Assembly (NCBI RefSeq): GCF_963921235.1
Contig: NC_086097.1
Coordinates: 168,146,001-168,210,000 of the forward strand
Origin: Mobula hypostoma
Lineage: Eukaryota
Direction of reading: 5' to 3'
Length of the DNA: 64,000 nt
Part shown: piece after piece, positions 1,461 to 37,879 of the stretch
Position numbering within the stretch: the first letter of the stretch is position 1
Layout: the number at the start of each line of letters is the position of its first letter
Notes under the pieces: generated by a model
Databases searched by the model: none
The model's input: only the letters and a program-made list of their open reading frames with translations
What the model was told of the DNA's origin: nothing
Position numbers and translations under genes: made by a program

Positions 1461-1645
1461 AAAACAACAGGAATTCTGCAGATGCTGGAAATTCAAGCAA
1501 CACACATAAAAGTTGCTGGTGAACGCAGCAGGCCAGGCAGCATCTCTAGGAAGAGGTGCAGTCGATGTTTCAGGCCCAGACCCTTCATCAGGACCTCTTC
1601 CTAGAGATGCTGCCTGGCCTGCTGCGTTCACCAGCAACTTTTATG
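1461..1645. mobile_element. PLE-derived fold-back mini-element #1
   Basis: Perfect 53-bp inverted arms 1505..1557 / 1593..1645 with a 35-nt spacer; TSD caggatgtat(a/g)tt at 1448..1460 / 1646..1658; arms match the PLE 3' terminus at 39030..39125. Confidence 0.85.
1561..1594 (-). ncRNA. Minimal type I hammerhead ribozyme-like motif (also at 12711..12744)
   Basis: Minus strand GTC-CTGATGA-AGG gtctggg CCT-GAAA-CA-TC-GAC: core boxes, stem I GTC/GAC, stem II AGG/CCT. The stem III CG has decayed to CA. Confidence 0.6.
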
Positions 1646-1884
1646 CAGGATGTATGTTGTATACATTTCTCTGACATTAAATGTACCTTTGAAACCTCTG
1701 ACATGTTTGAGTTAATAAAAAGTGTGGCACATTTTTTTCCTTCAGAGCAGCACATGGTTTCTTTGTAAAAGGCAAGACAATTGAGTTTAAAAAAAGGCAG
1801 AAAAAAGATTAATTTCATAGGTTCATAAACAGAGAGTACTGAGTGATCATAATCATAAATAAATCATGCCATCCGAGTGCAATC

Positions 1885-2221
1885 CGGGTCATATTATGAT
1901 CGAGGAACATGTTTGTAGACTGGATATTGAACTTTTTACTGGTGGACTTCGGCCATATTCCGCCGAGGTACAACACAAGGCGGCACGGGAGGTCGTTCCT
2001 GCCTGTGGCCATCGAACTTGCAGCTGGAGGGTCAGACACCCTGAGCCAATAGACTGGTCCTGGACTTATTTTCCATCTGGCATAGTTTGCAGTTTGTTGT
2101 TTGATTGTTTGTGGCTTTTGTATTGCTATATTTATGCTCTATTTTTGGTTGGTGCAGCTGTAACGAAACCCAATTTCCCTCGGGATCAATAAAGTATATC
2201 TATCTATCTATCTATCTATCT
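1885..2221 (+). mobile_element. Short non-LTR/SINE-like repeat with Rex1/L2-type tail and (CTAT)n (copy at 13035..13371)
   Basis: Ends aatttccctcgggatcaataaagta(tcta)n. Confidence 0.55.
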
Positions 2222-2234
2222 AAAAAAAGCAGAA

Positions 2235-4370
2235 ATAGCTGGCTACATTGGAAAGATAGTTACATTTGATTGCTCAAGAGATAACTAGATATTGTATACT
2301 GAGTGAATTGAGCAGTATTTTGAAGCAAACTACCTAAGCGAGTGTCAATTTTACAGAGTGTAAAGGTGGAAGAGCATACAGTTTGCTTTGAAGTTTGAAT
2401 GCTTTAACCAAACTAGCCAAAACAAGCTTTACTGATATCATGAAAGTAATGCAGGAAGATATAGAACCAAAACCATTGTTGATTGCAGAATCCTTTAGGT
2501 TTCATAAGCAGAATCACAAGGAAGGGAAGACAATTTCACCTTACACGGCTAAATTGAAGGAAGTGTCTAAGCATTGCCAGTTCAGTAATGGACTTAATGA
2601 TACATTGACAGATTTTTCAGTTTGTGAAATCTTACAAGAAAGCATTCAAGAATGGTTCTCAACTGAAGCACAACTCATTTAAAAGAGCAGGTGAAATTGC
2701 AGTATCAATAGAAATAGTAGACAGAGACACAATTGAGTTGCAGTCAGAAGCGAAAGTGAGAGAGAACAAAATTGCAACAGCTAAATAGAAACTTACCTGG
2801 ACAAACAAATTTTGTTACCATTGTGGCATGGGCTCACATACACCAGACCAATGCAGGTTTAAAGGTGAAACTTACAGAAAATGCAACAAAGTAGAACATA
2901 TACGAGCATTGTGAGGTCATGATTGGGTGAGACAATTACAACTTGATTGGAGTTCTATTCACCACTTGTGTGCTACATCCCCTGCAATAGATTCTACTGA
3001 AAGCAAATTAAGAAATATATTGGATGATGTCACAGTAGTGTTCAAGGATGGTATTGGAAAACTTATACATATAAAGGGTAACATTGTGTTAAATGAAAAT
3101 GCCACTCCCAAGTATTACAAAGCCCATCTGGTTCCTTATACAATCCATGGTAAAGTAGCCAGTGAGCAAGATTGCATGGAGGCAGTAAGAATTCTTTCCA
3201 ACGTTGAGTGGAGCCAATGGGCAATGCCAGTGGTCCCAGTATCCAAGAAGAATGGTTCTGCCAGGCTCTGTGGTGATTTTAAGGTTACCATCAACCCAGT
3301 ACTGAATGTAGATCAATGCCCACTGCCCAGGATAGCGGATATCTTTGAAAACCTTTCTGGAGGAAAAGCAGAAAAGTTAAGTGGATTTATCTGAAGCCTA
3401 CCTACAGATGGAGATGGAAGAAGAATCCAAAGTGTTTCTCACCATAAACACTCACAACGGGCTTTATCACTATAATAGGCTTATATTTGGAGTGGCATCT
3501 GCATCTGCACTCTGGCAGAAAGCTGTGGACCAGGTGCTGCAAGGCTGCCCTGGCACTCAGTGTTACCTGGATGACATCATTGTCATCAATGAAGATGACA
3601 AGGAACATTTCCAAAATCTCAAGACAGTGTTAAAAATTAGAAGATTATGGGCTCAGAGCAGGATGCAACAAGTGTGACTTTTTAAAACCAAGCATCACTT
3701 ACTGTGGTCACATCATTGATGCACAAGGATTACACAAGTGTGCTGAGAAAATTCAAGCAGTGGTGGATGCCTGAATGCCAAAGACAAGTCACAGTTTCGA
3801 TCCATTTTAGGATTTGTTAGTTACTATATCAGATTCCTGCCAAACCTGACTATTTTGCTCCACGCCTTGAACTCATTACTACTGATTGGGTAGAAATGGC
3901 ATTCAAAAGGGTAAAGAAAATGATGACATCAGACACTGCATTCACATATTATGACCATATCATCCTGTGAAGCTTGCCTGTGATGCCTTGCCTTATGATA
4001 TAGGTGTAGTCATGTCACATGATATGAGTGACAGAAAAGTGAACACCCCATAATCTTTGCATCATATTCCTTTACAATCAACAACTAATTTCCATTTTCA
4101 ATCTACAGAAGAGCGTTCCATTAAATGTGCAGCAGAAACTCTAGTCCCCCCCAGTTTGACCAGTGCCAGGATGAACGTGCCCTTGATGGAGGTTGTCTTG
4201 TGTACGGATTGAGAGTTGTTGTGGAATTCAAGCTGAGAGCTAAAGTGTTGTACATGTTGGTCATCTGGGTATGGTCAAAGCTTGGTGTGGTTGCCTGGGA
4301 TAGATCAGCAGATCGTGCAGATTGCCCTGCACTGTTCGGGCTGCCAACAAGACCGGAAGATGCCAGGAGC
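2235..4370 (+). pseudogene. Gypsy gag-pol remnant (gag, zinc knuckle, RT, RNase H/integrase fragments)
   Basis: EPKPLLIAESFRFHK (gag); PVVPVSKKNGSARLCGDFKVTIN, DLSEAYLQ and YLDDIIV (RT); VWLPGIDQQI...C..CQ (integrase zinc-binding part). Confidence 0.88.
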
Positions 4371-4861
4371 ATCTAGGAGAAGCAAAAAGAAAGGAGAACA
4401 ATGGTGTCCTAAGCTGTCAGAACCAGCTTCTGCAGGCCCAGAGTCAACTGTAAATATATGGTTTTAATTCAGCATTCTCTGTTTAAATAATTCATTATGG
4501 GCTATACGTAAACGTACTTAAAAGGCATATGTAATTACATCACCATGTCATAAGTGTGCGTCTTGCTAAAGTAAAAATAAAACTAGGCACAAGTTATCCC
4601 CAGCTCTCCCGTGTTTTTTTTCTTGCAATTAATTTTTGGAGTTACCAAACATAACACTTCGTATACTCACCACCACTTCATCTCCTCCTTCTCCAGGGAA
4701 ATTAGAGTTGGTCAATAGATGCTGAGCTAACCAGTGAGGGCAACACCCTGAAAATGAACAATGAAAATCTGTCCAATATCCACAAGGAACTGTAGTGATA
4801 GATGTAAGAAAGCACAATGGTATGCCAGGTGGTGTGACTGTTTCCTCGATCCAATACATAC

Positions 4862-5190
4862 AACATTGAACATAGAAATCTACAGCACATTACAGGCCCT
4901 TCTGCCCACAATGTTATGATGACCATGTAACCTACTCTAAAAACTACTTTGAATTACCCTACTGTGTAGCCTCTATTTTTCTAAGTTCTCTTAAAAGACA
5001 ATATTGTATCCACCTCTACCACTGTTGCTGGCAGTGCATTGCACACACTCACCAGTCTGTATGTGAAAAACTTACCTCTGACATTCCCTCAGTACCTACT
5101 TTCAAGCACCTTAAAACTATACCCCCTTCTGTTAGCCATTTCAGCCCTGGGAAAAAGCCTCTGGCTATCCACACGACCAATGCCTCTCAT
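4862..5190 (-). mobile_element. CR1 LINE 3' fragment (copy at 16012..16340)
   Basis: Similar to the CR1 3' end at 6602..6930 (gcaccttaaaact...gccatttcagccctggga). Confidence 0.7.
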
Positions 5191-6126
5191 CAGCTTGCGA
5201 TTCATTCTAAAGTTGTCTATGTGTGCAGTTTGCACATTCTCCCAGTGCTTTTGCTTCCTCCGACATTCCAGAAAACATACCCATTATTCCGCTAATTGGT
5301 TATTGTAAATTACCCCCAATATATGCAGCAGTTGGAGGGAATGAGTGGGGTGGGTTGTTAACGGGGCATGTGTGAGAGAATAGGGTATCAGGAAAATAAA
5401 TAGGGGAATAGGGATGGGATTGGCCTGTGTACTAGAAATGTCCTGATGAACCAAATAGCTTCCTTGTGTATCATCAAGAAATATGAAAAGTACATGCCAT
5501 TACAGACGAGGAACCACAATCAGAAACTGAACAGATTTTTGTTCCCTCTTTTCCTCTCATCTGTTAGCAGCTCCCATGAAAAGGATTTTACAACAGGAGC
5601 AGTTTAACAGATCAATGACTAAATTGGCAAGTTTGATTTGTCCATTTATACTGTTTGCGTCGACATGTTTCCTTGTCATTCAAAGTGAATACATAATATG
5701 TGGGATCTGAATTTCGTCAGCCAGCCTGCCTTTCCTGCTGATTCTGCATTCAATGGATTTATTGTTTCAATGAGGCAACAGAGAAGCAGCTGCTTCTTTT
5801 GGTGGGTGCACAGCTATTTGAAAAACCGCATTAACAGCTTTACAAATAATCATTATTACCTCCATAGAAGTTTACACTCTGCTAATGCCGTTCATTAATA
5901 TGGATAGGAGTGGACAACTGATGTTGTCCAAGATGGACATAGAATATCCTTAGGAGCAGTTTGAAAGAAGAGGAGGGTTCTCAGCCAATATTTATCACTA
6001 TATTTTCAATCAATATCGCCAAATAGAGAGTATCACATCACATTGTGGGAGCTTTCTGCTCAAAATAATGAAATAAACCACATTGATTTGTTTTCCTTAA
6101 AAACTAAAGTATGTCATTAGCTGGAA

Positions 6127-6320
6127 CACACATCAAAGTTGCTGGTGAACACAGCAGGCCAGGCAGCATCTCTAGGAAGAGGTACAGTCGACGTTTCAGG
6201 CCGAGACCCTCTTGGCCTGAAACGTCGACTGTACCTCTTCCTAGAGATGCTGCCTGGCCTGCTGCGTTCACCAGCAACTTTGATGTGTGTTGCTTGAATT
6301 TCCAGCATCTGCAGAATTCC
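6127..6320. mobile_element. PLE-derived fold-back mini-element #2
   Basis: 78-bp arms 6125..6202 / 6214..6291 with one mismatch and an 11-nt loop; TSD tgtcattag(c/t)tggaa at 6112..6126 / 6321..6335. Confidence 0.88.
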
Positions 6321-6601
6321 TGTCATTAGTTGGAAAATGCTTTAGGACATCAAAGGTTAAAAAGAAGTGCAAGGAGAGGATCACTGTTTAAATATAGTGG
6401 ATCAATCACTGAAAACAGAAATGAGGTGAAACTTTTGTCATTCACAGGGGCATAAGGCTTTGGAACTTCCTGAGATCCAGAGATAATATATGTTTATCAT
6501 ATTGTGTTACATTGCTGGCACCAGCTAGAATAATATTTAGCCAGTAAAATTTAGGCAAGAGAGATGGAAATGCTCCTGGATTCAGCTGTTTCGAGCGGTT
6601 G

Positions 6602-7325
6602 TTAGAAACATAGAAAACCCACAGCACAATACAGGCCTATGCTGGACATGTACTTACTTTAGAAATTACCTAGGGTTACCCATAGCCCTCTGTTTTACTG
6701 AGCTCCATATACCTGTCCAGGAGTCTCTTAAAAGACCCTATTGTATCCACCTCCACCACCGTCGATGGCAGCCCATTCCATGCACTCACCACTCTCTGCG
6801 TAAAAACTTACCCCTGACATCTCCTCTGTACCTATTTCCAAGCACCTTAAAACTGTGCCCTCTCATGTTAGCCATTTCAGCCCTGGGAGAAAGCCTCTGA
6901 CTACCCACACGATCAATGCCTCTCATCATCTTATACAGGTCAACTCTCATCCTCCGCCACTCCAAGGAGAAAAGGCTGAGTTCACTCAACCTGTTATCGT
7001 AAGGCATGCTCCCCAATCCAGGCAACGTCCTTGTAAATCTCCTTTGCACCCTTTCTATAGTTGCCACATCTTTCCTGTAGTGAGGTGACCAGAACTGAGC
7101 ACAGTACTCCAAGTGGGGTCTGACCAGGGTCCTATATAATTGTAACATTACCCTTTTGCTCCTAAACTCAATCCCACGGTTGATTAAGGCCAATGCATCG
7201 TATGCCTTCTTAACCACAGAGTCAACCTGTGCAGCAGCTTTGAGTGTCCTATGGACTTGGACCCTAAGATCCCTCTGATCCTCCACACTGCCAAGAGTCT
7301 TACCATTAATACTGTATTCTGTCAA
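6602..7325 (-). mobile_element. CR1 LINE 3' fragment (ORF2 C-terminus)
   Basis: LQLYRTLVRPHLEYCAQFWSPHYRKDVATIERVQRRFTR motif; (ttctatg)-type tail. Confidence 0.9.
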
Positions 7326-7529
7326 TGAAGCACTTAATCTTGTTCTGGATTATTATTTTGAGGCCTAGACTAAAACATGAGTTCAAATTGAACACTGGCA
7401 GCTGGGAAATTAAAATTCAATGAACTAAATCTGTAATTAAAGCAAGAAAGCCGGCTTCAGTAATGATGACTACAAGACTGACAGTAAAACCCCATACTGA
7501 ATGAAAGTGACTCCAGATTCACAGCAGTT

Positions 7530-8040
7530 AGGTTGTGAGTCAAGGAGGAGGTACTGGACTTGAGGATACACACTCAACATTTTAGGAACAGCTTTTATTT
7601 ATTTATTTGTTGATATGCTGCACGAAATAGGCCCTTTGAGCCACACTGCCCAGCAACCCCTCCCCCGGACGTCATCCGAGCCTAATCATGCGACAATTTA
7701 CAATGGCCAATTAACCTACTAATTGGTATGCCTTTGAACTGTGGGAGGAAACCCATGCAGTCATGTGGAGAATATACAGGCAATGGCAGAAATTGATCCC
7801 GGGTCATTGGTACTGTAAAACATTGTACTAATGCCTATGCTACCATGCCACCCCATTTTCCTTCAGATTTCTAAACAGTTCATGAACACTACCCCACTAT
7901 TTTCCTCTCTTTTTGCACTATTTATTTATTATACTGTAGTTTCTTATCGCTTTTATTTGTTTTACATTGTACTGCTGCCACAAAACAACAAATTTCATGG
8001 TTTGTGTCAGTGATAATAAACCTGATTCTGATTCTGAATC
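7530..8040 (+). mobile_element. Rex1/Babar 3' tail interrupted by a minus-strand V-SINE-like insert (~7615..7855); copy at +11150
   Basis: ttttaggaacagcttt...tcagatttctaaac...gataataaacctgattctgattctga tail; insert has gtgggaggaaacc and caatttacaatggccaattaacc. Confidence 0.55.
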
Positions 8041-8060
8041 ACTGGCCCCCATCACCCTGT

Positions 8061-8360
8061 CTCAATAGACAATAGACAATAAGTGCAGGAGTAGGCCATT
8101 CGGCCCTTTGAGCCAGCGCCGCCATTCACTGTGATCATGGCTGATCATCCACAATCAGTATCCAGTTCCTGCCTTATCCCCATAACCTTTGATTCCACTA
8201 TCTTTAAGAGCTCTATCCATCTCTTTCTTGAAAGCATCCAGAGACTTGGCCTCCACAGCCTTCTGGGGCAGAGCATTCCATATATCCACCACTCTCTGGG
8301 TGAAAAAGTTTTTCCTCAACTCCATTCTAAATGGCCTACCCCTTATTCTTAAACTGTGGC
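8061..8360 (-). mobile_element. CR1 LINE 3' end (copy at 19211..19510)
   Basis: GHSLRIRGRPFRMELRKNFFTQRVVDIWNALP; (ctattgt)n tail. Confidence 0.88.
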
Positions 8361-8745
8361 CTCCTCCCCCTCTCCAGCTGCTCATCAGCCACACACCCTC
8401 CCTTTGGTTCCCTTCCTCACCTTCTTTCCTTAATTCAGCTGTCCACCGTCTTCTCCTAAAGAGATTTCATTTTCTTCAGTCCTTTGTCACTTCCACCCCT
8501 CAGCTCCAAGCTTCTTACCACATTCCCATTGTCCCCTCTCCTTCACCTGCCTATCATCCTCCCCTCACCTGGATCCACCTATCACCTGCTTCACTCTGCC
8601 CTCCCACCAATGTATAGAGGCTATCTCTCTTCTTCCTCTCCAGTCTGAATGAAAGACCTCGACTCAAAATGTTGCCTGTACTTTTCCCACCACAAATACT
8701 GCCAGAACTTCCTGAGCTCCTCCAGCTCCTTTGAATGTTGCTCAG
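8361..8745 (+). mobile_element. Old PLE 3'-UTR fragment (copy at +11150)
   Basis: Pyrimidine-rich tract followed by a degenerate hammerhead/tail, similar to 38745..39125. Confidence 0.55.
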
Positions 8746-10239
8746 AAGAAGGTACATCAGGTCTGAGCAGAATGAGTCACAGAGTCAGAGAACACTACAA
8801 CACAGAAACTGGCATTTTGTCCAAGTCAGACTATTACTCTGTCTAGTTTCATTGATTGTATCCAGACCCCTTCATACCCCTCAATGCCCCTCAGAGGGTT
8901 TTGGGAAGATCTGAGCGGAGGTCAAACTGGTCGGAGTGGACCTTTAGAATTCTGGCCTCTGAACGAGATCACCTTGGACTTTGGCCCCTGTGATCTAATT
9001 CACACCCATCACCTCTTTAAATGCTAATTGATTTAGATATGCAACAACTTAATTGCCCGAGATTTCAAAGGCCTCCATGATTTCAGTGCTTCTTTATCCA
9101 CCTACTCCCACCCAGCTTAAAAACTCCTTAGGATGTCTGTGCTTCTTCAAGCCAGGCCTCCCGTCTATTCCTGAATTGACCTGATCTACGTGTGGGAACT
9201 GTTGTGTTGTTGGAGGCTGTAATTCACTCCCTAAACTTCTCAGCTTCTCTAGTTTACTTTACAAAAATAGCTGCCACTTTCTAGAAAGGACTGAAGAAGG
9301 GTCTTAGCCTGAAATGGCAACTGTTCACTTCCCTCCATAGATGCTGTCTGACACTTAGGTTCCTCCACCTTTTTGAGTGTTGTTCTTTTGAAGAAATCTT
9401 TGGATTATTTTAAAGACCAAAACTGCTGCTGAGACTGGACATCTGAAATAAAAATTTAAAAATGTTGAAAACACCCAAAGTTCAAAATTCAAAGTAAATA
9501 TATTGTTTAAGTACGTAAATGACACCACGTACAACCTTGAGATTCTTCTTTTTTTGCAGGCATACTCGATAAATCCAATAACCATAATAGAACCAATGAA
9601 AGACCACACCAACTGGGCACTCAACCAGTGTGCAAAAGACTACAAGCTGTGCAAATACAAAAATAATGGAGAAATAATAACAATAATTATTATAAATAAG
9701 CAATAAATATCAAGAACATGAGATGAAGAGTCCTTGAAAATGAGCTTAACAGGTTTGTTACCCAGACATGGAAAGAGAAACAGAGTTAGTGTTTCAGGCT
9801 GGAGCCATTTTGTCAGAACTGGTACAGAGACGAAATTAGTTCATTTTAATTTGATGCGGTGCGGCGATAGTTGAGGGATGAAGGAAATATCACAGAAAGG
9901 GCAAAGCCAAGCCTGTACTGGGGATAAGCTACTGATGAAGTCATCTGATTGATATACCGACATTTCTGTTCATAAAAAGAACCATAGATGCTGGAAATTT
10001 GAAATAAAAACAGGAAATGCTGGCATCCGTGCAGAGAGAAACAGTTAATGCCTCAGCTCAGATTACTGTTTCTCCAGGTGCTGCCTGGCCCACTGACCAT
10101 TATGAGCATTTAGTATTTTTACTTCAGCTCTCTATTTGCATATGGGCTTGGGGTCAGGTCAACACTGGATGATACTTGGCCCTTATTTCCTTTAATGGCT
10201 ACAATTTTCTATATTTCCCAAATCCTGATGGGACATTTA

Positions 10240-11010
10240 GTGGAAATAGCACATTAGGAGCACTGATGCACAGGGAAACATTGGAGTGTGTCCATAGCTC
10301 CCTGAATGCGTCAGCAAAGGTGGATAAGGTGATGTGGAAGGCATTTCGTATGACCGCCTTCATAGGCCGAGGCACTAATTCTAAGAGTTAGGATATCATG
10401 TTGCAGTTGTATAAAACATTGCTCAGATTGCATTTGGAGTATTGTGTATAATTTTGACAACCACACCATAGACAGCAATAAAGAAAATGTGGAAGATTTA
10501 GGAACACTTTCTTTCCCTTTGCCATCAGATTTCTGAATGGTCTATGAGCCAATGAAAACTCCCCTATTACTCCTGCGTTTACCTCTATTTATTTATCCTT
10601 CAAATGTACAGATTTTATGTATTGCTGCCACAAAATAACAAATTACATGTCATATATCAGTGATAATGAACTTGATTCTGATTTCGAGAAGATTTGCCAG
10701 AATGTTGCCTGGTTGTAATAACAAGGAGAGATCAGATAGTCTGTTTATTCTCACTGGAGCATAGGGGACCAAGGAGTAATCTTATAGAGATTTATAAAAT
10801 CATGAAGGGCAAATATAGGATAGGCAGTCAGAATATTGTATTTCACAGAGCAGGGAAATGTAGAGGTTGCAGGCACAGGTTTGAGATAAGATGGGAGAAA
10901 GGGTAATTTTTTTCACACAGAAGTGCTGGTTATATGGAATGATCGACTAAAGGAGGTTGTGGAGTCAGATACTATTACAACAGTTAGCAGGCATTTGGCT
11001 GGCAGATGGC
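10240..11010 (+). mobile_element. Degenerate CR1 3' fragment with an inserted Rex1/Babar tail (copy at +11150)
   Basis: KVDKVM.KAF.M.AFIGRG and LFSLEHRG.RSNLIEIYKIMKG remnants. Confidence 0.65.
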
Positions 11011-11199
11011 ATTAGTAGATTTGAATTAGTAGATAATGTGTTTGGTTTATCATTGCTAAATGTACCAAGATACAGTGAAAAGCTTGTCTTGCTTGCTGTT
11101 TATATAAATCGTTACACAGTGCATTGAGGTAGAACAAGGTAAATCAATAACAATGCAGAATAATGTCTTCAGAGAAAGTGCAGAGCAGTAAACAATAAA

Positions 11200-11760
11200 A
11201 TGAAGGTCAGATCATAACGCGGTAGATCGTGGGTTCAAAGTCCGTCTTATCGTTGGCCAATGTGCTATATCCGGATAATTTGCTTTGCTGTGGGGATACT
11301 GTACCTGTCGAGAAGGCGCTGCATAAGCGGCGGTTGTTGTTGTTAAGCATCGACGCACGCTAGAGTGCAGCAGAGAGAGAGGAAGAGTGTTGGTGTGTGT
11401 GCTGATAGACTCGGGCCACCCATCCGCAGTCCAGCGCAGCAGAGGAGCGGATCGGTCAGCGTGCAGGGGGATGGCGGGGTTGGAAGAGAAGGACAGCGAG
11501 CAGCTGCTGAAGCAGTGTCTCCACGCGGCGGTAGAGGTGGCGTTGGAGGCCGGTCAGGTGAGCGTTCAGGTGTCCCGGGTTTCCGGTGGGCGGATAGACG
11601 GGCCACTTCACGCAGTGGCAGCCCAGGCGCCTTTAATCCAACTATGTACTTCAGGAGATTAATCTTATATTCAACGGCACATACACATTCTTGTTAGTTT
11701 GCAGCGGGGGGGGGGGCTGGTGTGGCGGATGGCTTTATTTTTCTTCTACATCGGGAGCTG
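11200..11760 (+). promoter_or_regulatory. Duplicated CpG-rich promoter/5'UTR of IMPA2 (copy a)
   Basis: Copy of the promoter above at offset 11150, with an extra 9 bp at 11589..11597. Confidence 0.65.
11471..11557 (+). CDS. IMPA2: Identical duplicate of IMPA2 coding exon 1 (upstream copy, 1a)
   Basis: Same sequence as 22621..22707 at offset 11150, with ATG and CAG|GTGAGC donor intact. Confidence 0.8.
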
Positions 11761-12565
11761 TTTTGTAATCCGAAATTATAAAAAAAATTAAGCTAGCTTC
11801 TGTTCCGTTTTCTAGACGGACGGTTGGTTAATAATAACGAAAAAGTTTGATTATATTGCTGAAAACCAGCCTTGTATTAACCATCTACTAGGCCGGAAGG
11901 GGGGATGGGGAGTTTGTAAAAGGAACCGCTCGTACGTTATACTGTGTGTCTTTGACATTTCGAAGAATCTTGTGGGGTTGAACTATTTTTGGTGAGGTTG
12001 CTTTCAGATGTTTAGCACCCTTCAATCCACGTTTCTGTAACATATTTGTTGAAAATACAAACAGGAAGTACGCTAAAGTACCTGTTTTAACAAGAATGCC
12101 GTGTACTGCTGTTACCTCGATTGGCTAAGGCGAGCCTTAGACTGATGAATGTCATCAGGACCTTGAGATCATACTGCACCATGTTCGTAGTGTGCTGGTT
12201 TCTACGCCTGTTCTGAACTACAATCACATTGGCGGTGCTGTAATCTGTTGCATAATTATTCTTCTTTGAAACCCTAATGACTATAAGGCAATAAACTGAA
12301 GTCTTATGGCAGAATTCTGATCAGCAAGTATAAATTGGTAGCGGTGAGAAAACTTTATGATTCCGGAACAGGCGCGATGGCTACAGAAATGTGGGTGTGA
12401 GTGGAAGAGAAAGGGCAGAGGTTTTAAGATGTTACGGAGTAAATGCACAGAAAAATGCTTCCACTTAGAGGGCGTCAGAAGAGCAAGAGTCATCATGGGG
12501 GAAAAACGTCTTCAGTCTGAGAGTGGTTTCAGTTAAGACTGCCTGCCCCATGGACGAGTTTGGAA

Positions 12566-12661
12566 ATAAAACATTTAATGTCAGAGAAATGTATACAACA
12601 TACATCCTGCATAAAACATTTAATGTCAGAGAAATGTATACAACATACATCCTGCATAAAA
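12566..12661 (-). repeat. Duplication junction: two tandem 45-bp units, inverted copies of 1639..1684 / 12789..12834
   Basis: ataaaacatttaatgtcagagaaatgtatacaacatacatcctgc twice (12566..12610, 12611..12655); reverse complement of ttttatgcaggatgtatgttgtatacatttctctgacattaaatgt. Confidence 0.95.
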
Positions 12662-13384
12662 GTTGCTGGTGAACGCAGCAGGCCAGGCAGCATCTCTAGG
12701 AAGAGGTGCAGTCGATGTTTCAGGCCCAGACCCTTCATCAGGACCTCTTCCTAGAGATGCTGCCTGGCCTGCTGCGTTCACCAGCAACTTTTATGCAGGA
12801 TGTATGTTGTATACATTTCTCTGACATTAAATGTACCTTTGAAACCTCTGACATGTTTGAGTTAATAAAAAGTGTGGCACATTTTTTTCCTTCAGAGCAG
12901 CACATGGTTTCTTTGTAAAAGGCAAGACAATTGAGTTTAAAAAAAGGCAGAAAAAAGATTAATTTCATAGGTTCATAAACAGAGAGTACTGAGTGATCAT
13001 AATCATAAATAAATCATGCCATCCGAGTGCAATCCGGGTCATATTATGATCGAGGAACATGTTTGTAGACTGGATATTGAACTTTTTACTGGTGGACTTC
13101 GGCCATATTCCGCCGAGGTACAACACAAGGCGGCACGGGAGGTCGTTCCTGCCTGTGGCCATCGAACTTGCAGCTGGAGGGTCAGACACCCTGAGCCAAT
13201 AGACTGGTCCTGGACTTATTTTCCATCTGGCATAGTTTGCAGTTTGTTGTTTGATTGTTTGTGGCTTTTGTATTGCTATATTTATGCTCTATTTTTGGTT
13301 GGTGCAGCTGTAACGAAACCCAATTTCCCTCGGGATCAATAAAGTATATCTATCTATCTATCTATCTATCTAAAAAAAGCAGAA

Positions 13385-15806
13385 ATAGCTGGCTACATTG
13401 GAAAGATAGTTACATTTGATTGCTCAAGAGATAACTAGATATTGTATACTGAGTGAATTGAGCAGTATTTTGAAGCAAACTACCTAAGCGAGTGTCAATT
13501 TTACAGAGTGTAAAGGTGGAAGAGCATACAGTTTGCTTTGAAGTTTGAATGCTTTAACCAAACTAGCCAAAACAAGCTTTACTGATATCATGAAAGTAAT
13601 GCAGGAAGATATAGAACCAAAACCATTGTTGATTGCAGAATCCTTTAGGTTTCATAAGCAGAATCACAAGGAAGGGAAGACAATTTCACCTTACACGGCT
13701 AAATTGAAGGAAGTGTCTAAGCATTGCCAGTTCAGTAATGGACTTAATGATACATTGACAGATTTTTCAGTTTGTGAAATCTTACAAGAAAGCATTCAAG
13801 AATGGTTCTCAACTGAAGCACAACTCATTTAAAAGAGCAGGTGAAATTGCAGTATCAATAGAAATAGTAGACAGAGACACAATTGAGTTGCAGTCAGAAG
13901 CGAAAGTGAGAGAGAACAAAATTGCAACAGCTAAATAGAAACTTACCTGGACAAACAAATTTTGTTACCATTGTGGCATGGGCTCACATACACCAGACCA
14001 ATGCAGGTTTAAAGGTGAAACTTACAGAAAATGCAACAAAGTAGAACATATACGAGCATTGTGAGGTCATGATTGGGTGAGACAATTACAACTTGATTGG
14101 AGTTCTATTCACCACTTGTGTGCTACATCCCCTGCAATAGATTCTACTGAAAGCAAATTAAGAAATATATTGGATGATGTCACAGTAGTGTTCAAGGATG
14201 GTATTGGAAAACTTATACATATAAAGGGTAACATTGTGTTAAATGAAAATGCCACTCCCAAGTATTACAAAGCCCATCTGGTTCCTTATACAATCCATGG
14301 TAAAGTAGCCAGTGAGCAAGATTGCATGGAGGCAGTAAGAATTCTTTCCAACGTTGAGTGGAGCCAATGGGCAATGCCAGTGGTCCCAGTATCCAAGAAG
14401 AATGGTTCTGCCAGGCTCTGTGGTGATTTTAAGGTTACCATCAACCCAGTACTGAATGTAGATCAATGCCCACTGCCCAGGATAGCGGATATCTTTGAAA
14501 ACCTTTCTGGAGGAAAAGCAGAAAAGTTAAGTGGATTTATCTGAAGCCTACCTACAGATGGAGATGGAAGAAGAATCCAAAGTGTTTCTCACCATAAACA
14601 CTCACAACGGGCTTTATCACTATAATAGGCTTATATTTGGAGTGGCATCTGCATCTGCACTCTGGCAGAAAGCTGTGGACCAGGTGCTGCAAGGCTGCCC
14701 TGGCACTCAGTGTTACCTGGATGACATCATTGTCATCAATGAAGATGACAAGGAACATTTCCAAAATCTCAAGACAGTGTTAAAAATTAGAAGATTATGG
14801 GCTCAGAGCAGGATGCAACAAGTGTGACTTTTTAAAACCAAGCATCACTTACTGTGGTCACATCATTGATGCACAAGGATTACACAAGTGTGCTGAGAAA
14901 ATTCAAGCAGTGGTGGATGCCTGAATGCCAAAGACAAGTCACAGTTTCGATCCATTTTAGGATTTGTTAGTTACTATATCAGATTCCTGCCAAACCTGAC
15001 TATTTTGCTCCACGCCTTGAACTCATTACTACTGATTGGGTAGAAATGGCATTCAAAAGGGTAAAGAAAATGATGACATCAGACACTGCATTCACATATT
15101 ATGACCATATCATCCTGTGAAGCTTGCCTGTGATGCCTTGCCTTATGATATAGGTGTAGTCATGTCACATGATATGAGTGACAGAAAAGTGAACACCCCA
15201 TAATCTTTGCATCATATTCCTTTACAATCAACAACTAATTTCCATTTTCAATCTACAGAAGAGCGTTCCATTAAATGTGCAGCAGAAACTCTAGTCCCCC
15301 CCAGTTTGACCAGTGCCAGGATGAACGTGCCCTTGATGGAGGTTGTCTTGTGTACGGATTGAGAGTTGTTGTGGAATTCAAGCTGAGAGCTAAAGTGTTG
15401 TACATGTTGGTCATCTGGGTATGGTCAAAGCTTGGTGTGGTTGCCTGGGATAGATCAGCAGATCGTGCAGATTGCCCTGCACTGTTCGGGCTGCCAACAA
15501 GACCGGAAGATGCCAGGAGCATCTAGGAGAAGCAAAAAGAAAGGAGAACAATGGTGTCCTAAGCTGTCAGAACCAGCTTCTGCAGGCCCAGAGTCAACTG
15601 TAAATATATGGTTTTAATTCAGCATTCTCTGTTTAAATAATTCATTATGGGCTATACGTAAACGTACTTAAAAGGCATATGTAATTACATCACCATGTCA
15701 TAAGTGTGCGTCTTGCTAAAGTAAAAATAAAACTAGGCACAAGTTATCCCCAGCTCTCCCGTGTTTTTTTTCTTGCAATTAATTTTTGGAGTTACCAAAC
15801 ATAACA
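13385..15806 (+). mobile_element. Duplicated part of the old Gypsy element (gag-pol remnant + 3' LTR, no 5' LTR)
   Basis: Copy of 2235..4656 at +11150. Confidence 0.85.
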
Positions 15807-17276
15807 CTTCGTATACTCACCACCACTTCATCTCCTCCTTCTCCAGGGAAATTAGAGTTGGTCAATAGATGCTGAGCTAACCAGTGAGGGCAACACCCTG
15901 AAAATGAACAATGAAAATCTGTCCAATATCCACAAGGAACTGTAGTGATAGATGTAAGAAAGCACAATGGTATGCCAGGTGGTGTGACTGTTTCCTCGAT
16001 CCAATACATACAACATTGAACATAGAAATCTACAGCACATTACAGGCCCTTCTGCCCACAATGTTATGATGACCATGTAACCTACTCTAAAAACTACTTT
16101 GAATTACCCTACTGTGTAGCCTCTATTTTTCTAAGTTCTCTTAAAAGACAATATTGTATCCACCTCTACCACTGTTGCTGGCAGTGCATTGCACACACTC
16201 ACCAGTCTGTATGTGAAAAACTTACCTCTGACATTCCCTCAGTACCTACTTTCAAGCACCTTAAAACTATACCCCCTTCTGTTAGCCATTTCAGCCCTGG
16301 GAAAAAGCCTCTGGCTATCCACACGACCAATGCCTCTCATCAGCTTGCGATTCATTCTAAAGTTGTCTATGTGTGCAGTTTGCACATTCTCCCAGTGCTT
16401 TTGCTTCCTCCGACATTCCAGAAAACATACCCATTATTCCGCTAATTGGTTATTGTAAATTACCCCCAATATATGCAGCAGTTGGAGGGAATGAGTGGGG
16501 TGGGTTGTTAACGGGGCATGTGTGAGAGAATAGGGTATCAGGAAAATAAATAGGGGAATAGGGATGGGATTGGCCTGTGTACTAGAAATGTCCTGATGAA
16601 CCAAATAGCTTCCTTGTGTATCATCAAGAAATATGAAAAGTACATGCCATTACAGACGAGGAACCACAATCAGAAACTGAACAGATTTTTGTTCCCTCTT
16701 TTCCTCTCATCTGTTAGCAGCTCCCATGAAAAGGATTTTACAACAGGAGCAGTTTAACAGATCAATGACTAAATTGGCAAGTTTGATTTGTCCATTTATA
16801 CTGTTTGCGTCGACATGTTTCCTTGTCATTCAAAGTGAATACATAATATGTGGGATCTGAATTTCGTCAGCCAGCCTGCCTTTCCTGCTGATTCTGCATT
16901 CAATGGATTTATTGTTTCAATGAGGCAACAGAGAAGCAGCTGCTTCTTTTGGTGGGTGCACAGCTATTTGAAAAACCGCATTAACAGCTTTACAAATAAT
17001 CATTATTACCTCCATAGAAGTTTACACTCTGCTAATGCCGTTCATTAATATGGATAGGAGTGGACAACTGATGTTGTCCAAGATGGACATAGAATATCCT
17101 TAGGAGCAGTTTGAAAGAAGAGGAGGGTTCTCAGCCAATATTTATCACTATATTTTCAATCAATATCGCCAAATAGAGAGTATCACATCACATTGTGGGA
17201 GCTTTCTGCTCAAAATAATGAAATAAACCACATTGATTTGTTTTCCTTAAAAACTAAAGTATGTCATTAGCTGGAA

Positions 17277-17470
17277 CACACATCAAAGTTGCTGGTGAAC
17301 ACAGCAGGCCAGGCAGCATCTCTAGGAAGAGGTACAGTCGACGTTTCAGGCCGAGACCCTCTTGGCCTGAAACGTCGACTGTACCTCTTCCTAGAGATGC
17401 TGCCTGGCCTGCTGCGTTCACCAGCAACTTTGATGTGTGTTGCTTGAATTTCCAGCATCTGCAGAATTCC
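17277..17470. mobile_element. Duplicated copy of fold-back mini-element #2
   Basis: Copy of 6127..6320 at +11150. Confidence 0.88.
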
Positions 17471-17751
17471 TGTCATTAGTTGGAAAATGCTTTAGGACAT
17501 CAAAGGTTAAAAAGAAGTGCAAGGAGAGGATCACTGTTTAAATATAGTGGATCAATCACTGAAAACAGAAATGAGGTGAAACTTTTGTCATTCACAGGGG
17601 CATAAGGCTTTGGAACTTCCTGAGATCCAGAGATAATATATGTTTATCATATTGTGTTACATTGCTGGCACCAGCTAGAATAATATTTAGCCAGTAAAAT
17701 TTAGGCAAGAGAGATGGAAATGCTCCTGGATTCAGCTGTTTCGAGCGGTTG

Positions 17752-18475
17752 TTAGAAACATAGAAAACCCACAGCACAATACAGGCCTATGCTGGACATG
17801 TACTTACTTTAGAAATTACCTAGGGTTACCCATAGCCCTCTGTTTTACTGAGCTCCATATACCTGTCCAGGAGTCTCTTAAAAGACCCTATTGTATCCAC
17901 CTCCACCACCGTCGATGGCAGCCCATTCCATGCACTCACCACTCTCTGCGTAAAAACTTACCCCTGACATCTCCTCTGTACCTATTTCCAAGCACCTTAA
18001 AACTGTGCCCTCTCATGTTAGCCATTTCAGCCCTGGGAGAAAGCCTCTGACTACCCACACGATCAATGCCTCTCATCATCTTATACAGGTCAACTCTCAT
18101 CCTCCGCCACTCCAAGGAGAAAAGGCTGAGTTCACTCAACCTGTTATCGTAAGGCATGCTCCCCAATCCAGGCAACGTCCTTGTAAATCTCCTTTGCACC
18201 CTTTCTATAGTTGCCACATCTTTCCTGTAGTGAGGTGACCAGAACTGAGCACAGTACTCCAAGTGGGGTCTGACCAGGGTCCTATATAATTGTAACATTA
18301 CCCTTTTGCTCCTAAACTCAATCCCACGGTTGATTAAGGCCAATGCATCGTATGCCTTCTTAACCACAGAGTCAACCTGTGCAGCAGCTTTGAGTGTCCT
18401 ATGGACTTGGACCCTAAGATCCCTCTGATCCTCCACACTGCCAAGAGTCTTACCATTAATACTGTATTCTGTCAA
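17752..18475 (-). mobile_element. Duplicated CR1 3' fragment
   Basis: Copy of 6602..7325 at +11150. Confidence 0.9.
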
Positions 18476-21400
18476 TGAAGCACTTAATCTTGTTCTGGAT
18501 TATTATTTTGAGGCCTAGACTAAAACATGAGTTCAAATTGAACACTGGCAGCTGGGAAATTAAAATTCAATGAACTAAATCTGTAATTAAAGCAAGAAAG
18601 CCGGCTTCAGTAATGATGACTACAAGACTGACAGTAAAACCCCATACTGAATGAAAGTGACTCCAGATTCACAGCAGTTAGGTTGTGAGTCAAGGAGGAG
18701 GTACTGGACTTGAGGATACACACTCAACATTTTAGGAACAGCTTTTATTTATTTATTTGTTGATATGCTGCACGAAATAGGCCCTTTGAGCCACACTGCC
18801 CAGCAACCCCTCCCCCGGACGTCATCCGAGCCTAATCATGCGACAATTTACAATGGCCAATTAACCTACTAATTGGTATGCCTTTGAACTGTGGGAGGAA
18901 ACCCATGCAGTCATGTGGAGAATATACAGGCAATGGCAGAAATTGATCCCGGGTCATTGGTACTGTAAAACATTGTACTAATGCCTATGCTACCATGCCA
19001 CCCCATTTTCCTTCAGATTTCTAAACAGTTCATGAACACTACCCCACTATTTTCCTCTCTTTTTGCACTATTTATTTATTATACTGTAGTTTCTTATCGC
19101 TTTTATTTGTTTTACATTGTACTGCTGCCACAAAACAACAAATTTCATGGTTTGTGTCAGTGATAATAAACCTGATTCTGATTCTGAATCACTGGCCCCC
19201 ATCACCCTGTCTCAATAGACAATAGACAATAAGTGCAGGAGTAGGCCATTCGGCCCTTTGAGCCAGCGCCGCCATTCACTGTGATCATGGCTGATCATCC
19301 ACAATCAGTATCCAGTTCCTGCCTTATCCCCATAACCTTTGATTCCACTATCTTTAAGAGCTCTATCCATCTCTTTCTTGAAAGCATCCAGAGACTTGGC
19401 CTCCACAGCCTTCTGGGGCAGAGCATTCCATATATCCACCACTCTCTGGGTGAAAAAGTTTTTCCTCAACTCCATTCTAAATGGCCTACCCCTTATTCTT
19501 AAACTGTGGCCTCCTCCCCCTCTCCAGCTGCTCATCAGCCACACACCCTCCCTTTGGTTCCCTTCCTCACCTTCTTTCCTTAATTCAGCTGTCCACCGTC
19601 TTCTCCTAAAGAGATTTCATTTTCTTCAGTCCTTTGTCACTTCCACCCCTCAGCTCCAAGCTTCTTACCACATTCCCATTGTCCCCTCTCCTTCACCTGC
19701 CTATCATCCTCCCCTCACCTGGATCCACCTATCACCTGCTTCACTCTGCCCTCCCACCAATGTATAGAGGCTATCTCTCTTCTTCCTCTCCAGTCTGAAT
19801 GAAAGACCTCGACTCAAAATGTTGCCTGTACTTTTCCCACCACAAATACTGCCAGAACTTCCTGAGCTCCTCCAGCTCCTTTGAATGTTGCTCAGAAGAA
19901 GGTACATCAGGTCTGAGCAGAATGAGTCACAGAGTCAGAGAACACTACAACACAGAAACTGGCATTTTGTCCAAGTCAGACTATTACTCTGTCTAGTTTC
20001 ATTGATTGTATCCAGACCCCTTCATACCCCTCAATGCCCCTCAGAGGGTTTTGGGAAGATCTGAGCGGAGGTCAAACTGGTCGGAGTGGACCTTTAGAAT
20101 TCTGGCCTCTGAACGAGATCACCTTGGACTTTGGCCCCTGTGATCTAATTCACACCCATCACCTCTTTAAATGCTAATTGATTTAGATATGCAACAACTT
20201 AATTGCCCGAGATTTCAAAGGCCTCCATGATTTCAGTGCTTCTTTATCCACCTACTCCCACCCAGCTTAAAAACTCCTTAGGATGTCTGTGCTTCTTCAA
20301 GCCAGGCCTCCCGTCTATTCCTGAATTGACCTGATCTACGTGTGGGAACTGTTGTGTTGTTGGAGGCTGTAATTCACTCCCTAAACTTCTCAGCTTCTCT
20401 AGTTTACTTTACAAAAATAGCTGCCACTTTCTAGAAAGGACTGAAGAAGGGTCTTAGCCTGAAATGGCAACTGTTCACTTCCCTCCATAGATGCTGTCTG
20501 ACACTTAGGTTCCTCCACCTTTTTGAGTGTTGTTCTTTTGAAGAAATCTTTGGATTATTTTAAAGACCAAAACTGCTGCTGAGACTGGACATCTGAAATA
20601 AAAATTTAAAAATGTTGAAAACACCCAAAGTTCAAAATTCAAAGTAAATATATTGTTTAAGTACGTAAATGACACCACGTACAACCTTGAGATTCTTCTT
20701 TTTTTGCAGGCATACTCGATAAATCCAATAACCATAATAGAACCAATGAAAGACCACACCAACTGGGCACTCAACCAGTGTGCAAAAGACTACAAGCTGT
20801 GCAAATACAAAAATAATGGAGAAATAATAACAATAATTATTATAAATAAGCAATAAATATCAAGAACATGAGATGAAGAGTCCTTGAAAATGAGCTTAAC
20901 AGGTTTGTTACCCAGACATGGAAAGAGAAACAGAGTTAGTGTTTCAGGCTGGAGCCATTTTGTCAGAACTGGTACAGAGACGAAATTAGTTCATTTTAAT
21001 TTGATGCGGTGCGGCGATAGTTGAGGGATGAAGGAAATATCACAGAAAGGGCAAAGCCAAGCCTGTACTGGGGATAAGCTACTGATGAAGTCATCTGATT
21101 GATATACCGACATTTCTGTTCATAAAAAGAACCATAGATGCTGGAAATTTGAAATAAAAACAGGAAATGCTGGCATCCGTGCAGAGAGAAACAGTTAATG
21201 CCTCAGCTCAGATTACTGTTTCTCCAGGTGCTGCCTGGCCCACTGACCATTATGAGCATTTAGTATTTTTACTTCAGCTCTCTATTTGCATATGGGCTTG
21301 GGGTCAGGTCAACACTGGATGATACTTGGCCCTTATTTCCTTTAATGGCTACAATTTTCTATATTTCCCAAATCCTGATGGGACATTTAGTGGAAATAGC

Positions 21401-22349
21401 ACATTAGGAGCACTGATGCACAGGGAAACATTGGAGTGTGTCCATAGCTCCCTGAATGCGTCAGCAAAGGTGGATAAGGTGATGTGGAAGGCATTTCGTA
21501 TGACCGCCTTCATAGGCCGAGGCACTAATTCTAAGAGTTAGGATATCATGTTGCAGTTGTATAAAACATTGCTCAGATTGCATTTGGAGTATTGTGTATA
21601 ATTTTGACAACCACACCATAGACAGCAATAAAGAAAATGTGGAAGATTTAGGAACACTTTCTTTCCCTTTGCCATCAGATTTCTGAATGGTCTATGAGCC
21701 AATGAAAACTCCCCTATTACTCCTGCGTTTACCTCTATTTATTTATCCTTCAAATGTACAGATTTTATGTATTGCTGCCACAAAATAACAAATTACATGT
21801 CATATATCAGTGATAATGAACTTGATTCTGATTTCGAGAAGATTTGCCAGAATGTTGCCTGGTTGTAATAACAAGGAGAGATCAGATAGTCTGTTTATTC
21901 TCACTGGAGCATAGGGGACCAAGGAGTAATCTTATAGAGATTTATAAAATCATGAAGGGCAAATATAGGATAGGCAGTCAGAATATTGTATTTCACAGAG
22001 CAGGGAAATGTAGAGGTTGCAGGCACAGGTTTGAGATAAGATGGGAGAAAGGGTAATTTTTTTCACACAGAAGTGCTGGTTATATGGAATGATCGACTAA
22101 AGGAGGTTGTGGAGTCAGATACTATTACAACAGTTAGCAGGCATTTGGCTGGCAGATGGCATTAGTAGATTTGAATTAGTAGATAATGTGTTTGGTTTAT
22201 CATTGCTAAATGTACCAAGATACAGTGAAAAGCTTGTCTTGCTTGCTGTTTATATAAATCGTTACACAGTGCATTGAGGTAGAACAAGGTAAATCAATAA
22301 CAATGCAGAATAATGTCTTCAGAGAAAGTGCAGAGCAGTAAACAATAAA

Positions 22350-22900
22350 ATGAAGGTCAGATCATAACGCGGTAGATCGTGGGTTCAAAGTCCGTCTTAT
22401 CGTTGGCCAATGTGCTATATCCGGATAATTTGCTTTGCTGTGGGGATACTGTACCTGTCGAGAAGGCGCTGCATAAGCGGCGGTTGTTGTTGTTAAGCAT
22501 CGACGCACGCTAGAGTGCAGCAGAGAGAGAGGAAGAGTGTTGGTGTGTGTGCTGATAGACTCGGGCCACCCATCCGCAGTCCAGCGCAGCAGAGGAGCGG
22601 ATCGGTCAGCGTGCAGGGGGATGGCGGGGTTGGAAGAGAAGGACAGCGAGCAGCTGCTGAAGCAGTGTCTCCACGCGGCGGTAGAGGTGGCGTTGGAGGC
22701 CGGTCAGGTGAGCGTTCAGGTGTCCCGGGTTTCCGGTGACGGGCCACTTCACGCAGTGGCAGCCCAGGCGCCTTTAATCCAACTATGTACTTCAGGAGAT
22801 TAATCTTATATTCAACGGCACATACACATTCTTGTTAGTTTGCAGCGGGGGGGGGGGCTGGTGTGGCGGATGGCTTTATTTTTCTTCTACATCGGGAGCT
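22350..22900 (+). promoter_or_regulatory. CpG-rich promoter/5'UTR of IMPA2 (copy b)
   Basis: Local high density of CpG against a CpG-depleted background around exon 1; GGCCAAT box near 22405; edges approximate. Confidence 0.7.
22621..22707 (+). CDS. IMPA2: Inositol monophosphatase 2, coding exon 1 (downstream copy, 1b)
   Basis: ATG in a CpG-rich context; encodes MAGLEEKDSEQLLKQCLHAAVEVALEAGQ, resembling the IMPA2 N-terminus (..ECFQAAVQLALRAGQ); strong donor CAG|GTGAGC, phase 0. Confidence 0.9.
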
Positions 22901-23717
22901 GTTTTGTAATCCGAAATTATAAAAAAAATTAAGCTAGCTTCTGTTCCGTTTTCTAGACGGACGGTTGGTTAATAATAACGAAAAAGTTTGATTATATTGC
23001 TGAAAACCAGCCTTGTATTAACCATCTACTAGGCCGGAAGGGGGGATGGGGAGTTTGTAAAAGGAACCGCTCGTACGTTATACTGTGTGTCTTTGACATT
23101 TCGAAGAATCTTGTGGGGTTGAACTATTTTTGGTGAGGTTGCTTTCAGATGTTTAGCACCCTTCAATCCACGTTTCTGTAACATATTTGTTGAAAATACA
23201 AACAGGAAGTACGCTAAAGTACCTGTTTTAACAAGAATGCCGTGTACTGCTGTTACCTCGATTGGCTAAGGCGAGCCTTAGACTGATGAATGTCATCAGG
23301 ACCTTGAGATCATACTGCACCATGTTCGTAGTGTGCTGGTTTCTACGCCTGTTCTGAACTACAATCACATTGGCGGTGCTGTAATCTGTTGCATAATTAT
23401 TCTTCTTTGAAACCCTAATGACTATAAGGCAATAAACTGAAGTCTTATGGCAGAATTCTGATCAGCAAGTATAAATTGGTAGCGGTGAGAAAACTTTATG
23501 ATTCCGGAACAGGCGCGATGGCTACAGAAATGTGGGTGTGAGTGGAAGAGAAAGGGCAGAGGTTTTAAGATGTTACGGAGTAAATGCACAGAAAAATGCT
23601 TCCACTTAGAGGGCGTCAGAAGAGCAAGAGTCATCATGGGGGAAAAACGTCTTCAGTCTGAGAGTGGTTTCAGTTAAGACTGCCTGCCCCATGGACGAGT
23701 TTGGAAATAAAACGTTC

Positions 23718-23868
23718 AAAAACAAGAGAAAATCTGCAGGTGTTGGAAATCCAAGCAACACGCACAAAATGCTGGAGGAATTCAGCAGGCTGAACGGTCT
23801 CTGCTCGGCTCTTTTCCATGGATGCTGCCCGGCCTGTGGAGTTCCTCCGGCATTTTGTGTGTGTCGCC
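23718..23868. mobile_element. Older PLE-derived fold-back mini-element at the right duplication breakpoint
   Basis: Imperfect arms ~23755..23792 / ~23830..23867; degenerate TSD ggaaataaaac / ggaaacaatac (23703..23713 / 23870..23880). Confidence 0.7.
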
Positions 23869-32650: not shown

Positions 32651-33945
32651 TTGGTGTGACAAATGGCATTACGGTATTTGGGCAAGTTAAGGGGAATGTA
32701 GTTTGAGGTAGAATTAGGGATTTTCAAGTTACTTCATGTACCTAATGGCGGTGGGGAAGAAGCTGTTGTTGACCCTTGATCTGTTCTTCTACGTTCCAAA
32801 CCTATTCTGGTATCTGTCCCCCACTTTTCCTTCGCTACATTGACGACTGCATTCGCGCTACTTCCTGCACACATGCTGAGCTCGTTGACTTCATTAACTT
32901 TGCCTCCAACTTTCACCGTGCCCTCAAGTTTACCTGGTCCATTTCCGACACCTCCCTCCCCTTTCTAGATCTTTCTGTCTCTATCTCTGGAGACAGCTTA
33001 TCTACTGATGTCTACTATAAGCCTACTGACTCTCACAGCTATCTGGACTATTCCTCTTCTCACCCTGTCTCTTGCAAAAATGCCATCCTCTTCTCGCAAT
33101 TCCTCTGTCTCCGCTGCATCTGCTTTCAGGATGAGGCTTTTCATTCCAGGACGAGGGAGGTGCCTTCCTTTTTTAAAGAAAGGGGCTTCCCTTCCTCCAC
33201 CATCAACTCTGCTCTCAAACGCATCTTCCCCCATTTCACGTACATCTGCTCTCACTCCATCCTCCTGCCACCCCACTAGGAATAGGGTTCCCCTTGTCCT
33301 CACCTACCACCCCACCAGCCTCCGGGTCCAACATATTATTCTCCGTAACTTCCGCCACCTCTAACGGGATCCCACCACTAAGCACATCTTTCCCTCCCCC
33401 CCCCCCGCTTTCCACAGGGGTCGCTCCCTTCGCGACTGCCTTATGCATTCATTCCCCCCCATCCCTCCCCACCAATCTCCCTTCTGGCACTTATCCTTGT
33501 AAGCAAAGCAAGTGCTACACATGCCCTTACACTTCCTCCCTTACCACCATTCAGGGCCCCAGACAGTCCTTCCAGGTGAGGCGACACTTCACCTGTGAGT
33601 TGGCTGGGGTGAAATACTGCGTCCGGTGCTCCCGATGTGGCCTTCTATATATTGGCGAGACCCGACGCAGACTGGGAGACCGCTTTGCTGAACACCTACG
33701 CTCTGTCCGCCAGAGAAAGAAGGATCTCCCAGTGGCCACACATTTTAATTCCACGTCCCATTCCCATTCTGATATGTCTATCCATGGCCTCCTCTACTGT
33801 AAAGATGAAGCCACACTCAGGTTGGAGAAACAACACCTTATATTCCGTCTGGGTAGCCTCCAACCTGATGGCATGAACATTGACTTCTCAAACTCCTGCT
33901 AATGCCCCACCTCCCCCTCGTACCCAATCTGTTATTTATTTATAT

Positions 33946-34804: not shown

Positions 34805-34816
34805 CTTCCCCCCTTT
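34805..34816 (-). promoter_or_regulatory. Polypurine tract
   Basis: Minus strand AAAGGGGGGAAG immediately before the 3' LTR. Confidence 0.9.
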
Positions 34817-37875: not shown

Positions 37876-37879
37876 CTTA

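Follow-up and report, generated by a model that had tools for sequence, protein, structure and literature searches.

How did a ray gene resembling IMPA2 come to have two identical first exons, is this arrangement carried in the germline, and would it change expression of the gene? Self-BLAST of the window (the whole 64,000-nucleotide stretch of DNA analyzed, which is without any N) returned a single long direct repeat of 11,074 columns at 99.9% identity, 1505 to 12578 against 12655 to 23719. By exact comparison, 1505 to 11588 equals 12655 to 22738 and 11598 to 12572 equals 22739 to 23713; the sole difference between the copies of this unit is 9 bp (11589 to 11597) missing from copy 2, with 0 substitutions in 11,059 bp. 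The period of the duplication is 11,150, and the copies have no gap between them but are not flush, being separated by an 82-bp insert (12573 to 12654). Both contain the CpG island and coding exon 1 of a gene whose exons 2 to 7 are single, which bears out a preliminary description of two near-identical units, each with a CpG-rich promoter, an ATG exon 1, and a splice donor; the 82-bp insert was absent from that account. The unit and its surroundings comprise the following features.

578 to 761, + strand: 5' LTR of an old Gypsy-like element, outside the unit
1505 to 12572, + strand: copy 1 of the unit, 11,068 bp, with the ancestral long allele (exact comparison; long allele in a congener contig)
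11589 to 11597, + strand: the 9 bp missing from copy 2, in intron 1 at +32 to +40, overlapping a GC box
12655 to 23713, + strand: copy 2 of the unit, 11,059 bp, with the derived 9-bp deletion (exact comparison)
15624 to 15805, + strand: duplicate of the 3' LTR of the old element, lying within the long intron that copy-1 transcripts now have, with AATAAA at 15726

The two first exons belong to an open frame that continues into the single-copy exons. Either exon 1 spliced to exons 2 to 7 gives 247 codons with no stop, as the preliminary description had proposed in stating that either could join exon 2 and yield the same protein. DPIDGT is found at codon 98 and WD at codon 227; we take these to be the metal-binding motifs of IMPases. 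The CpG island of each copy reaches 66% GC, with a CpG observed/expected ratio of 0.8 to 1.2 and one CCAAT.

About 11200 to 11750, + strand: CpG island and promoter of copy 1, with CCAAT at 11257 and the sole GGGCGG at 11588
11280 to 11557, + strand: exon 1a, with ATG at 11471, 29 codons, and a phase-0 GT donor after 11557
22430 to 22707, + strand: exon 1b, identical to exon 1a, with ATG at 22621, a GT donor after 22707, and no strong acceptor upstream
39399 to 39532, + strand: exon 2 (motif search, splice sites, PDB match)
48054 to 48158, + strand: exon 3, with the DPIDGT motif (motif search, splice sites)
51531 to 51576, + strand: exon 4 (motif search, splice sites)
54396 to 54504, + strand: exon 5 (motif search, splice sites)
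58737 to 58845, + strand: exon 6 (splice sites, PDB match)
60006 to 60157, + strand: exon 7 (splice sites, PDB match)

Searches of the PDB indicate that the gene is probably IMPA2-like, nearer to IMPA2 than to IMPA1. Human IMPA2 scored above IMPA1 for exon 2 (51 versus 39 bits), exon 6 (30 versus 29), and exon 7 (76 versus 60), and thus ranks first for three of the four exons searched, with a margin of <2 bits for exon 6; the naming of the gene as IMPA2 in the preliminary description agrees with these best matches, narrowly so for exon 6. Exon 1 alone (29 aa), which is too short to match, returned designed helices only and no IMPase. The ray gene thus resembles vertebrate IMPA2 (PDB 2CZH and 2FVZ) in these three exons and in the presence of DPIDGT and WD, and differs from it in having a duplicated 5' end; its last exon was not found within the 64,000-nt window and lies outside it. 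One contig from a run that is RNA by guess (X5) matches 11280 to 11557 and departs exactly at the donor into 28 other letters, as expected of a spliced exon. The ATG frame is also open for 48 codons upstream across the 5' untranslated region (11327 to 11470), so that any in-frame acceptor there would extend the protein N-terminally.

Whether the duplication exists in animals was approached through contigs, not raw reads, of 4 of 24 runs (X2, X4, X5, and X6), compared over 10340 to 12740. X1 to X4 are same-species DNA runs of one sample (S1), which is perhaps not from the assembled animal, and X6 is a congener. One contig each from X2 and X4 matches 11137 and 11134, respectively, to 12572 without difference, has the long allele, and then continues for 34 letters off the junction; the X5 and X6 contigs also leave the junction path at 12572, with 36 and 34 other letters. 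The long allele was present in all three DNA runs compared (X2, X4, and X6). A contig path with the long allele and without the junction therefore exists, which is the presence of another path and not the absence of the junction. The 34-letter continuation fits the unique stretch that precedes a hairpin element (element B, below) in length only. Because both of the same-species DNA runs compared give the long allele and then a non-junction path, these contigs suggest that the duplication is not fixed. We consider a germline variant, mostly heterozygous or segregating, to be likely; the preliminary description had raised a segregating structural variant as a possibility, and we judge this to be the likeliest state.

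The main competing explanation is that the duplication is not germline and reflects a clonal somatic event, or a small number of aberrant molecules retained by the assembler, possibly with the alleles of both haplotypes set in tandem. We regard this as unlikely. It would account for the zero substitutions between copies and for what was seen among the longest contig pieces listed, namely, the 9-bp deletion in none of the three DNA runs and a junction-spanning piece in none of the four runs; however, a junction piece is expected to be only ~58 letters long, and S1 may be another animal. Similarly, X1 to X4 lack about 5% of words, holding 0.95 of 140 sampled words of 11300 to 12720, where 0.959 is expected if only the 57 junction-only words are missing. 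Words of very high copy number stand at the end of the junction, and contig cleaning may remove them; contigs also tend to lose variants. Three normalizers of unit depth disagree (1.07x, 1.52x, and 1.86x), and contig depth is not a measure of copy number. The lowest value, which favors an artifact or a somatic origin, used all nonzero joint rows (14 for X2 and 12 for X4), which are rows selected for support. The two higher values, which speak against it, came from 7 and 5 hand-picked single other-locus contigs, with multicontig rows and short repeat pieces left out (1.52x), and from a Poisson fit to contig letters, or k-mers (1.86x).

The structure of the junction also argues against an artifact, since it holds an insert copied repeatedly from a local template, as is typical of cellular repair. 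To our knowledge, assemblers do not write a locally templated junction of this kind. False duplications of assemblies are similar in that near-identical copies are adjacent, but the available text of one survey describes most of them as showing a gap between differing haplotypes (PMC9516828). The ray copies have no haplotype-like substitutions, and in place of the gap expected of a false (heterotype) duplication, the window has 0 N and the 82-bp templated insert. A haplotype misjoin is thus disfavored by the lack of a gap and by a templated junction with hairpin elements at both breakpoints.

1458 to 1645, + strand: hairpin element A, with perfect 53-bp arms (1505 to 1557 and 1593 to 1645) and a 35-bp loop (folding z of -14)
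1646 to 1684, - strand: sequence from which the junction insert was templated, within a high-copy LINE-like tail (many other-locus contigs match)
12573 to 12654, + strand: junction insert, 82 bp, consisting of 37 bp that are the reverse complement of 1646 to 1682, 8 bp, and then those 37 bp again
12616 to 12834, no strand: perfect 92-bp inverted repeat (12616 to 12707 and 12743 to 12834) at the start of copy 2, created by the insert
23717 to 23867, + strand: hairpin element B, of the family and orientation of A (81% over 74 bp)

Every part of the insert can be traced to the left end of the unit. The segments 12573 to 12609 and 12618 to 12654 are each the reverse complement of 1646 to 1682, and 12571 to 12616 is, letter for letter, the reverse complement of 1639 to 1684. 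The junction also contains a 45-bp tandem (12566 to 12610 and 12611 to 12655), and its microhomologies are a 2-bp AC at 12571 to 12572 and a 6-bp ATAAAA for the repeat pass. Overall, the locus has the features of a duplication of the TMEJ or snap-back type: a head-to-tail copy, a short microhomology at the join, and a flank-templated inverted insert adjoining a 53-bp arm of an inverted repeat.

The left breakpoint of the unit is inside the left arm of element A, which has a 10-bp target duplication (1448 to 1457 and 1646 to 1655). The right breakpoint falls 3 to 4 bp before element B, where what may be a decayed target duplication of that element (9 of 11 positions) ends. Seven hairpin-family loci make up 2.1% of the de-duplicated window, and the chance of both unit ends touching such loci is ~4e-4, as reckoned after the fact for one window. 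Summed contig depth at 12608 to 12740, within a hairpin element, is in the millions, compared with <10 on unique DNA, and the family is therefore extremely abundant in both species. We name it Penelope-end-like, a putative assignment made because its sequence forms the inverted ends (82 to 88% matches at both) of a reverse transcriptase (RT)-bearing element at 27070 to 29330; the Pfam matches to RVT_1 and GIY-YIG near this element and near 32795 to 33902 are below cutoffs. Rfam returned 0 matches for the family, and a literature search found no description of it.

Other elements were also observed in the window. The element at 27070 to 29330, whose inverted ends belong to the hairpin family, has an RT frame and a target duplication of 13 bp; a copy related to it, which matches GIY-YIG weakly, is found at 32795 to 33902. 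The unit itself contains another hairpin element (6125 to 6323 and 17275 to 17473), with a near-perfect stem of ~80 bp and a 3-base loop; its arms match locally within each copy, as if the fold-back had been made at insertion.

Our preferred explanation, held with moderate confidence, is a real, young tandem duplication on the assembled haplotype, probably not fixed, that arose via snap-back-type repair between hairpin elements. The anatomy, the frames, the junction templating, and the ancestral allele are read directly; from these we infer the order of events, the enzyme, the zygosity, and the use of both promoters. A break at the edge of element B would have left a right-hand end that was extended leftwards by ~11 kb with the sister or homologue as template; copy 2 would then be the new strand and would have picked up the 9-bp slip. 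On reaching element A, the new strand would have folded back on itself, with a switch point anywhere in the arm, and copied 37 to 39 nt outwards. A 2-bp match may then have paired it with the left-hand end, and a single backward slip by the 6-bp match, giving the 45-bp repeat, may have preceded joining as in snap-back polymerase theta-type end joining. Such a route would explain every junction base, as well as the derived deletion lying in copy 2.

Parallels to this route have been reported. In worms, duplications of 10 to 20 kb with microhomology and templated inserts need polymerase theta (PMC7368036, PMC13031629), and snap-back synthesis at inverted repeats has been described (SD-MMEJ; PMC5728401, PMC11292364). 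As far as the available text of these reports goes, the ray junction is similar in size range, microhomology, flank-templated insert, and priming by an inverted repeat. However, the inserts in the worm study are 1 to 20 bp, whereas that of the ray is 82 bp and was made in two passes. Furthermore, the polymerase theta systems are repair mutants, whereas the ray junction, primed by a 53-bp transposon hairpin, comes from a wild vertebrate assembly.

A different order of events, in which unequal recombination between A and B as direct repeats came first and the hybrid element was later remodeled by fold-back repair, is quite improbable. Elements A and B share orientation and 81% identity over 74 bp, and their positions on either side of the unit are exactly those that a crossover needs, but a match of this length and identity is a poor substrate for recombination. 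A crossover in register would moreover leave the 49-bp 5' part of B at the junction, where none is found, and the route needs two events. No hybrid repeat of the kind expected of unequal crossover, whether between LTRs or between A and B, is present at the junction.

Recombination between LTRs is ruled out as the origin, because the unit includes the 3' LTR of the old element but not the 5' LTR, in agreement with the preliminary description, which had placed the start of the unit inside an old Gypsy element and excluded this cause. The two LTRs (578 to 761 and 4474 to 4655) are 82.6% alike, and only the 3' one is inside the unit. More precisely, the unit starts within a hairpin element nested in the LINE-like tail, which is itself inside the old element. 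We take this element to be Gypsy-like on the strength of its LTR pair and the likeness of its broken gag-pol; its frame at 2915 to 3391 had no match in Pfam (6 of the 13 frames searched matched). A 32-bp tandem repeat at 550 to 611, at the outer edge of the old 5' LTR, is possibly another small repair scar.

The age of the snap-back duplication that we favor can be bounded with the congener. The X6 contig has the long allele, indicating that the 9-bp deletion in copy 2 is derived, and has 32 other letters in 2,180 (1.47% divergence); it also has 22 gap letters, which depth bins place away from the 9-bp site. This comparison indicates that the duplication postdates the species split. Zero substitutions bound the divergence between copies at 0.027%, which amounts to <2% of the congener divergence of 1.47%. 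At the mutation rate of the epaulette shark, given as 7e-10 per generation in the available text of PMC10587355, the bound corresponds to up to ~190,000 generations. The duplication had been called very recent, which is apt relative to the congener but less so in generations.

With regard to expression, transcripts from either promoter would splice to exon 2 and give the same protein. The first exons are 11 kb apart, and the first introns to exon 2 are 27.8 kb from exon 1a and 16.7 kb from exon 1b. The best in-frame acceptor before exon 1b (22585) has a pyrimidine share of 0.65, versus 0.71 to 0.88 for the six real ones, by a crude score. A product joining exon 1a, exon 1b, and exon 2 is unlikely given this weak acceptor, and an unchanged protein is expected, since exon 1b has no good one. 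The two promoters are not quite equal, because the 9-bp deletion removes the sole GGGCGG hexamer in 10900 to 12000 from copy 2. Thus, of the two intact promoters and first exons described previously, the first exons are intact and in frame, but the copy 2 promoter is without its only GGGCGG. Any effect of the duplication would be on dose only, up or down, and is probably small. The greater initiation or promoter interference proposed in the preliminary description is hypothetical at this locus. X5 contigs are without cover at 10826 to 10987 (upstream of the promoter) and 11636 to 11716 (intron), and uncovered contig parts prove nothing. A cryptic acceptor and donor pair lies just after the 3' LTR, at 4697 to 4804 in copy 1 and at 15847 to 15954 in copy 2, inside the new long intron.

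Of the readings weighed here, the least probable is that the duplication is regulatory, has been fixed or selected, and increases IMPA2 expression or changes its pattern. The intact first exons are consistent with it, and the k-mer normalizer (1.86x) is compatible with two copies on both homologues, but the two same-species DNA runs compared have the long allele only, and the other two have a word share of 0.95. There is also no divergence between copies from which to read selection. Within the new 9.9 kb, transcripts from copy 1 have 12 AATAAA to pass, including one in the copied LTR, compared with 10 in the old 16.7-kb intron.

The closest known case is the 79,156-bp tandem duplication of CYP19A1 promoters and noncoding first exons in aromatase excess syndrome (PMC3272822), and the increase in expression that this 79-kb duplication causes in people counts in favor of a regulatory role. 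According to the available part of that report, the cases are alike in that one or more promoters and first exons are tandemly copied upstream of common exons; the CYP19A1 duplication is heterozygous and of replication-type origin (FoSTeS). The ray duplication differs in involving one promoter and a coding first exon over 11 kb. Rare splicing of exon 1 to exon 1 was seen in the CYP19A1 case, whereas exon 1b of the ray is without a good acceptor.

The preliminary description had also mentioned, as speculation, a link to myo-inositol as an osmolyte. This link is weak. In the available text of PMC4010420, IMPA1 induction greatly exceeded that of IMPA2 in two of three tilapia cell lines and was similar to it in the third; the main salt-induced isoform in two of the three lines is therefore IMPA1, which also counts against a regulatory duplication of IMPA2. 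Furthermore, rays retain NaCl and urea, as stated in the accessible part of PMC9396271.

Overall, the locus contains a young partial-gene tandem duplication, probably real, with a clear repair signature; it is an ordinary structural variant with no sign yet of function. None of the publications listed in a literature search concerned an IMPA2 duplication at this locus, and the available text of a mobulid genome preprint has 0 occurrences of IMPA2. Taken alone, the locus is a single young structural variant whose repair scar is unusually easy to read, and it matters little. The reference 5' end of the IMPA2-like gene may not be representative of the species. Provided that the variant is real and segregates, the effect of a second identical promoter (more output, interference, or nothing) could be tested simply. 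Recurrence of such junctions at hairpin elements across the genome would identify a mechanism by which mutation produces structural change in a vertebrate lineage whose mutation rate is low. More speculatively, and with some doubt on our part, the abundant hairpin elements of the ray lineage may be recurrent seeds of 10-kb-scale tandem duplications, with one element fixing the site of the break and a second one turning the new strand back on itself, where copying stops. Duplicated promoters would on this view arise from them throughout the lineage, and the allele described here, which would have lost one GC box during the duplication itself, would amount to a newborn natural experiment with two promoters.

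A separate, young LTR retroelement lies in intron 1 of IMPA2 (33946 to 38738, - strand). It has 859-bp LTRs that are 99.5% alike, TG...CA ends, and a 4-bp target duplication, and its 950-codon frame encodes SCAN and zinc-knuckle domains. The RT-like end of this frame is only partial, and the element is therefore probably nonautonomous.
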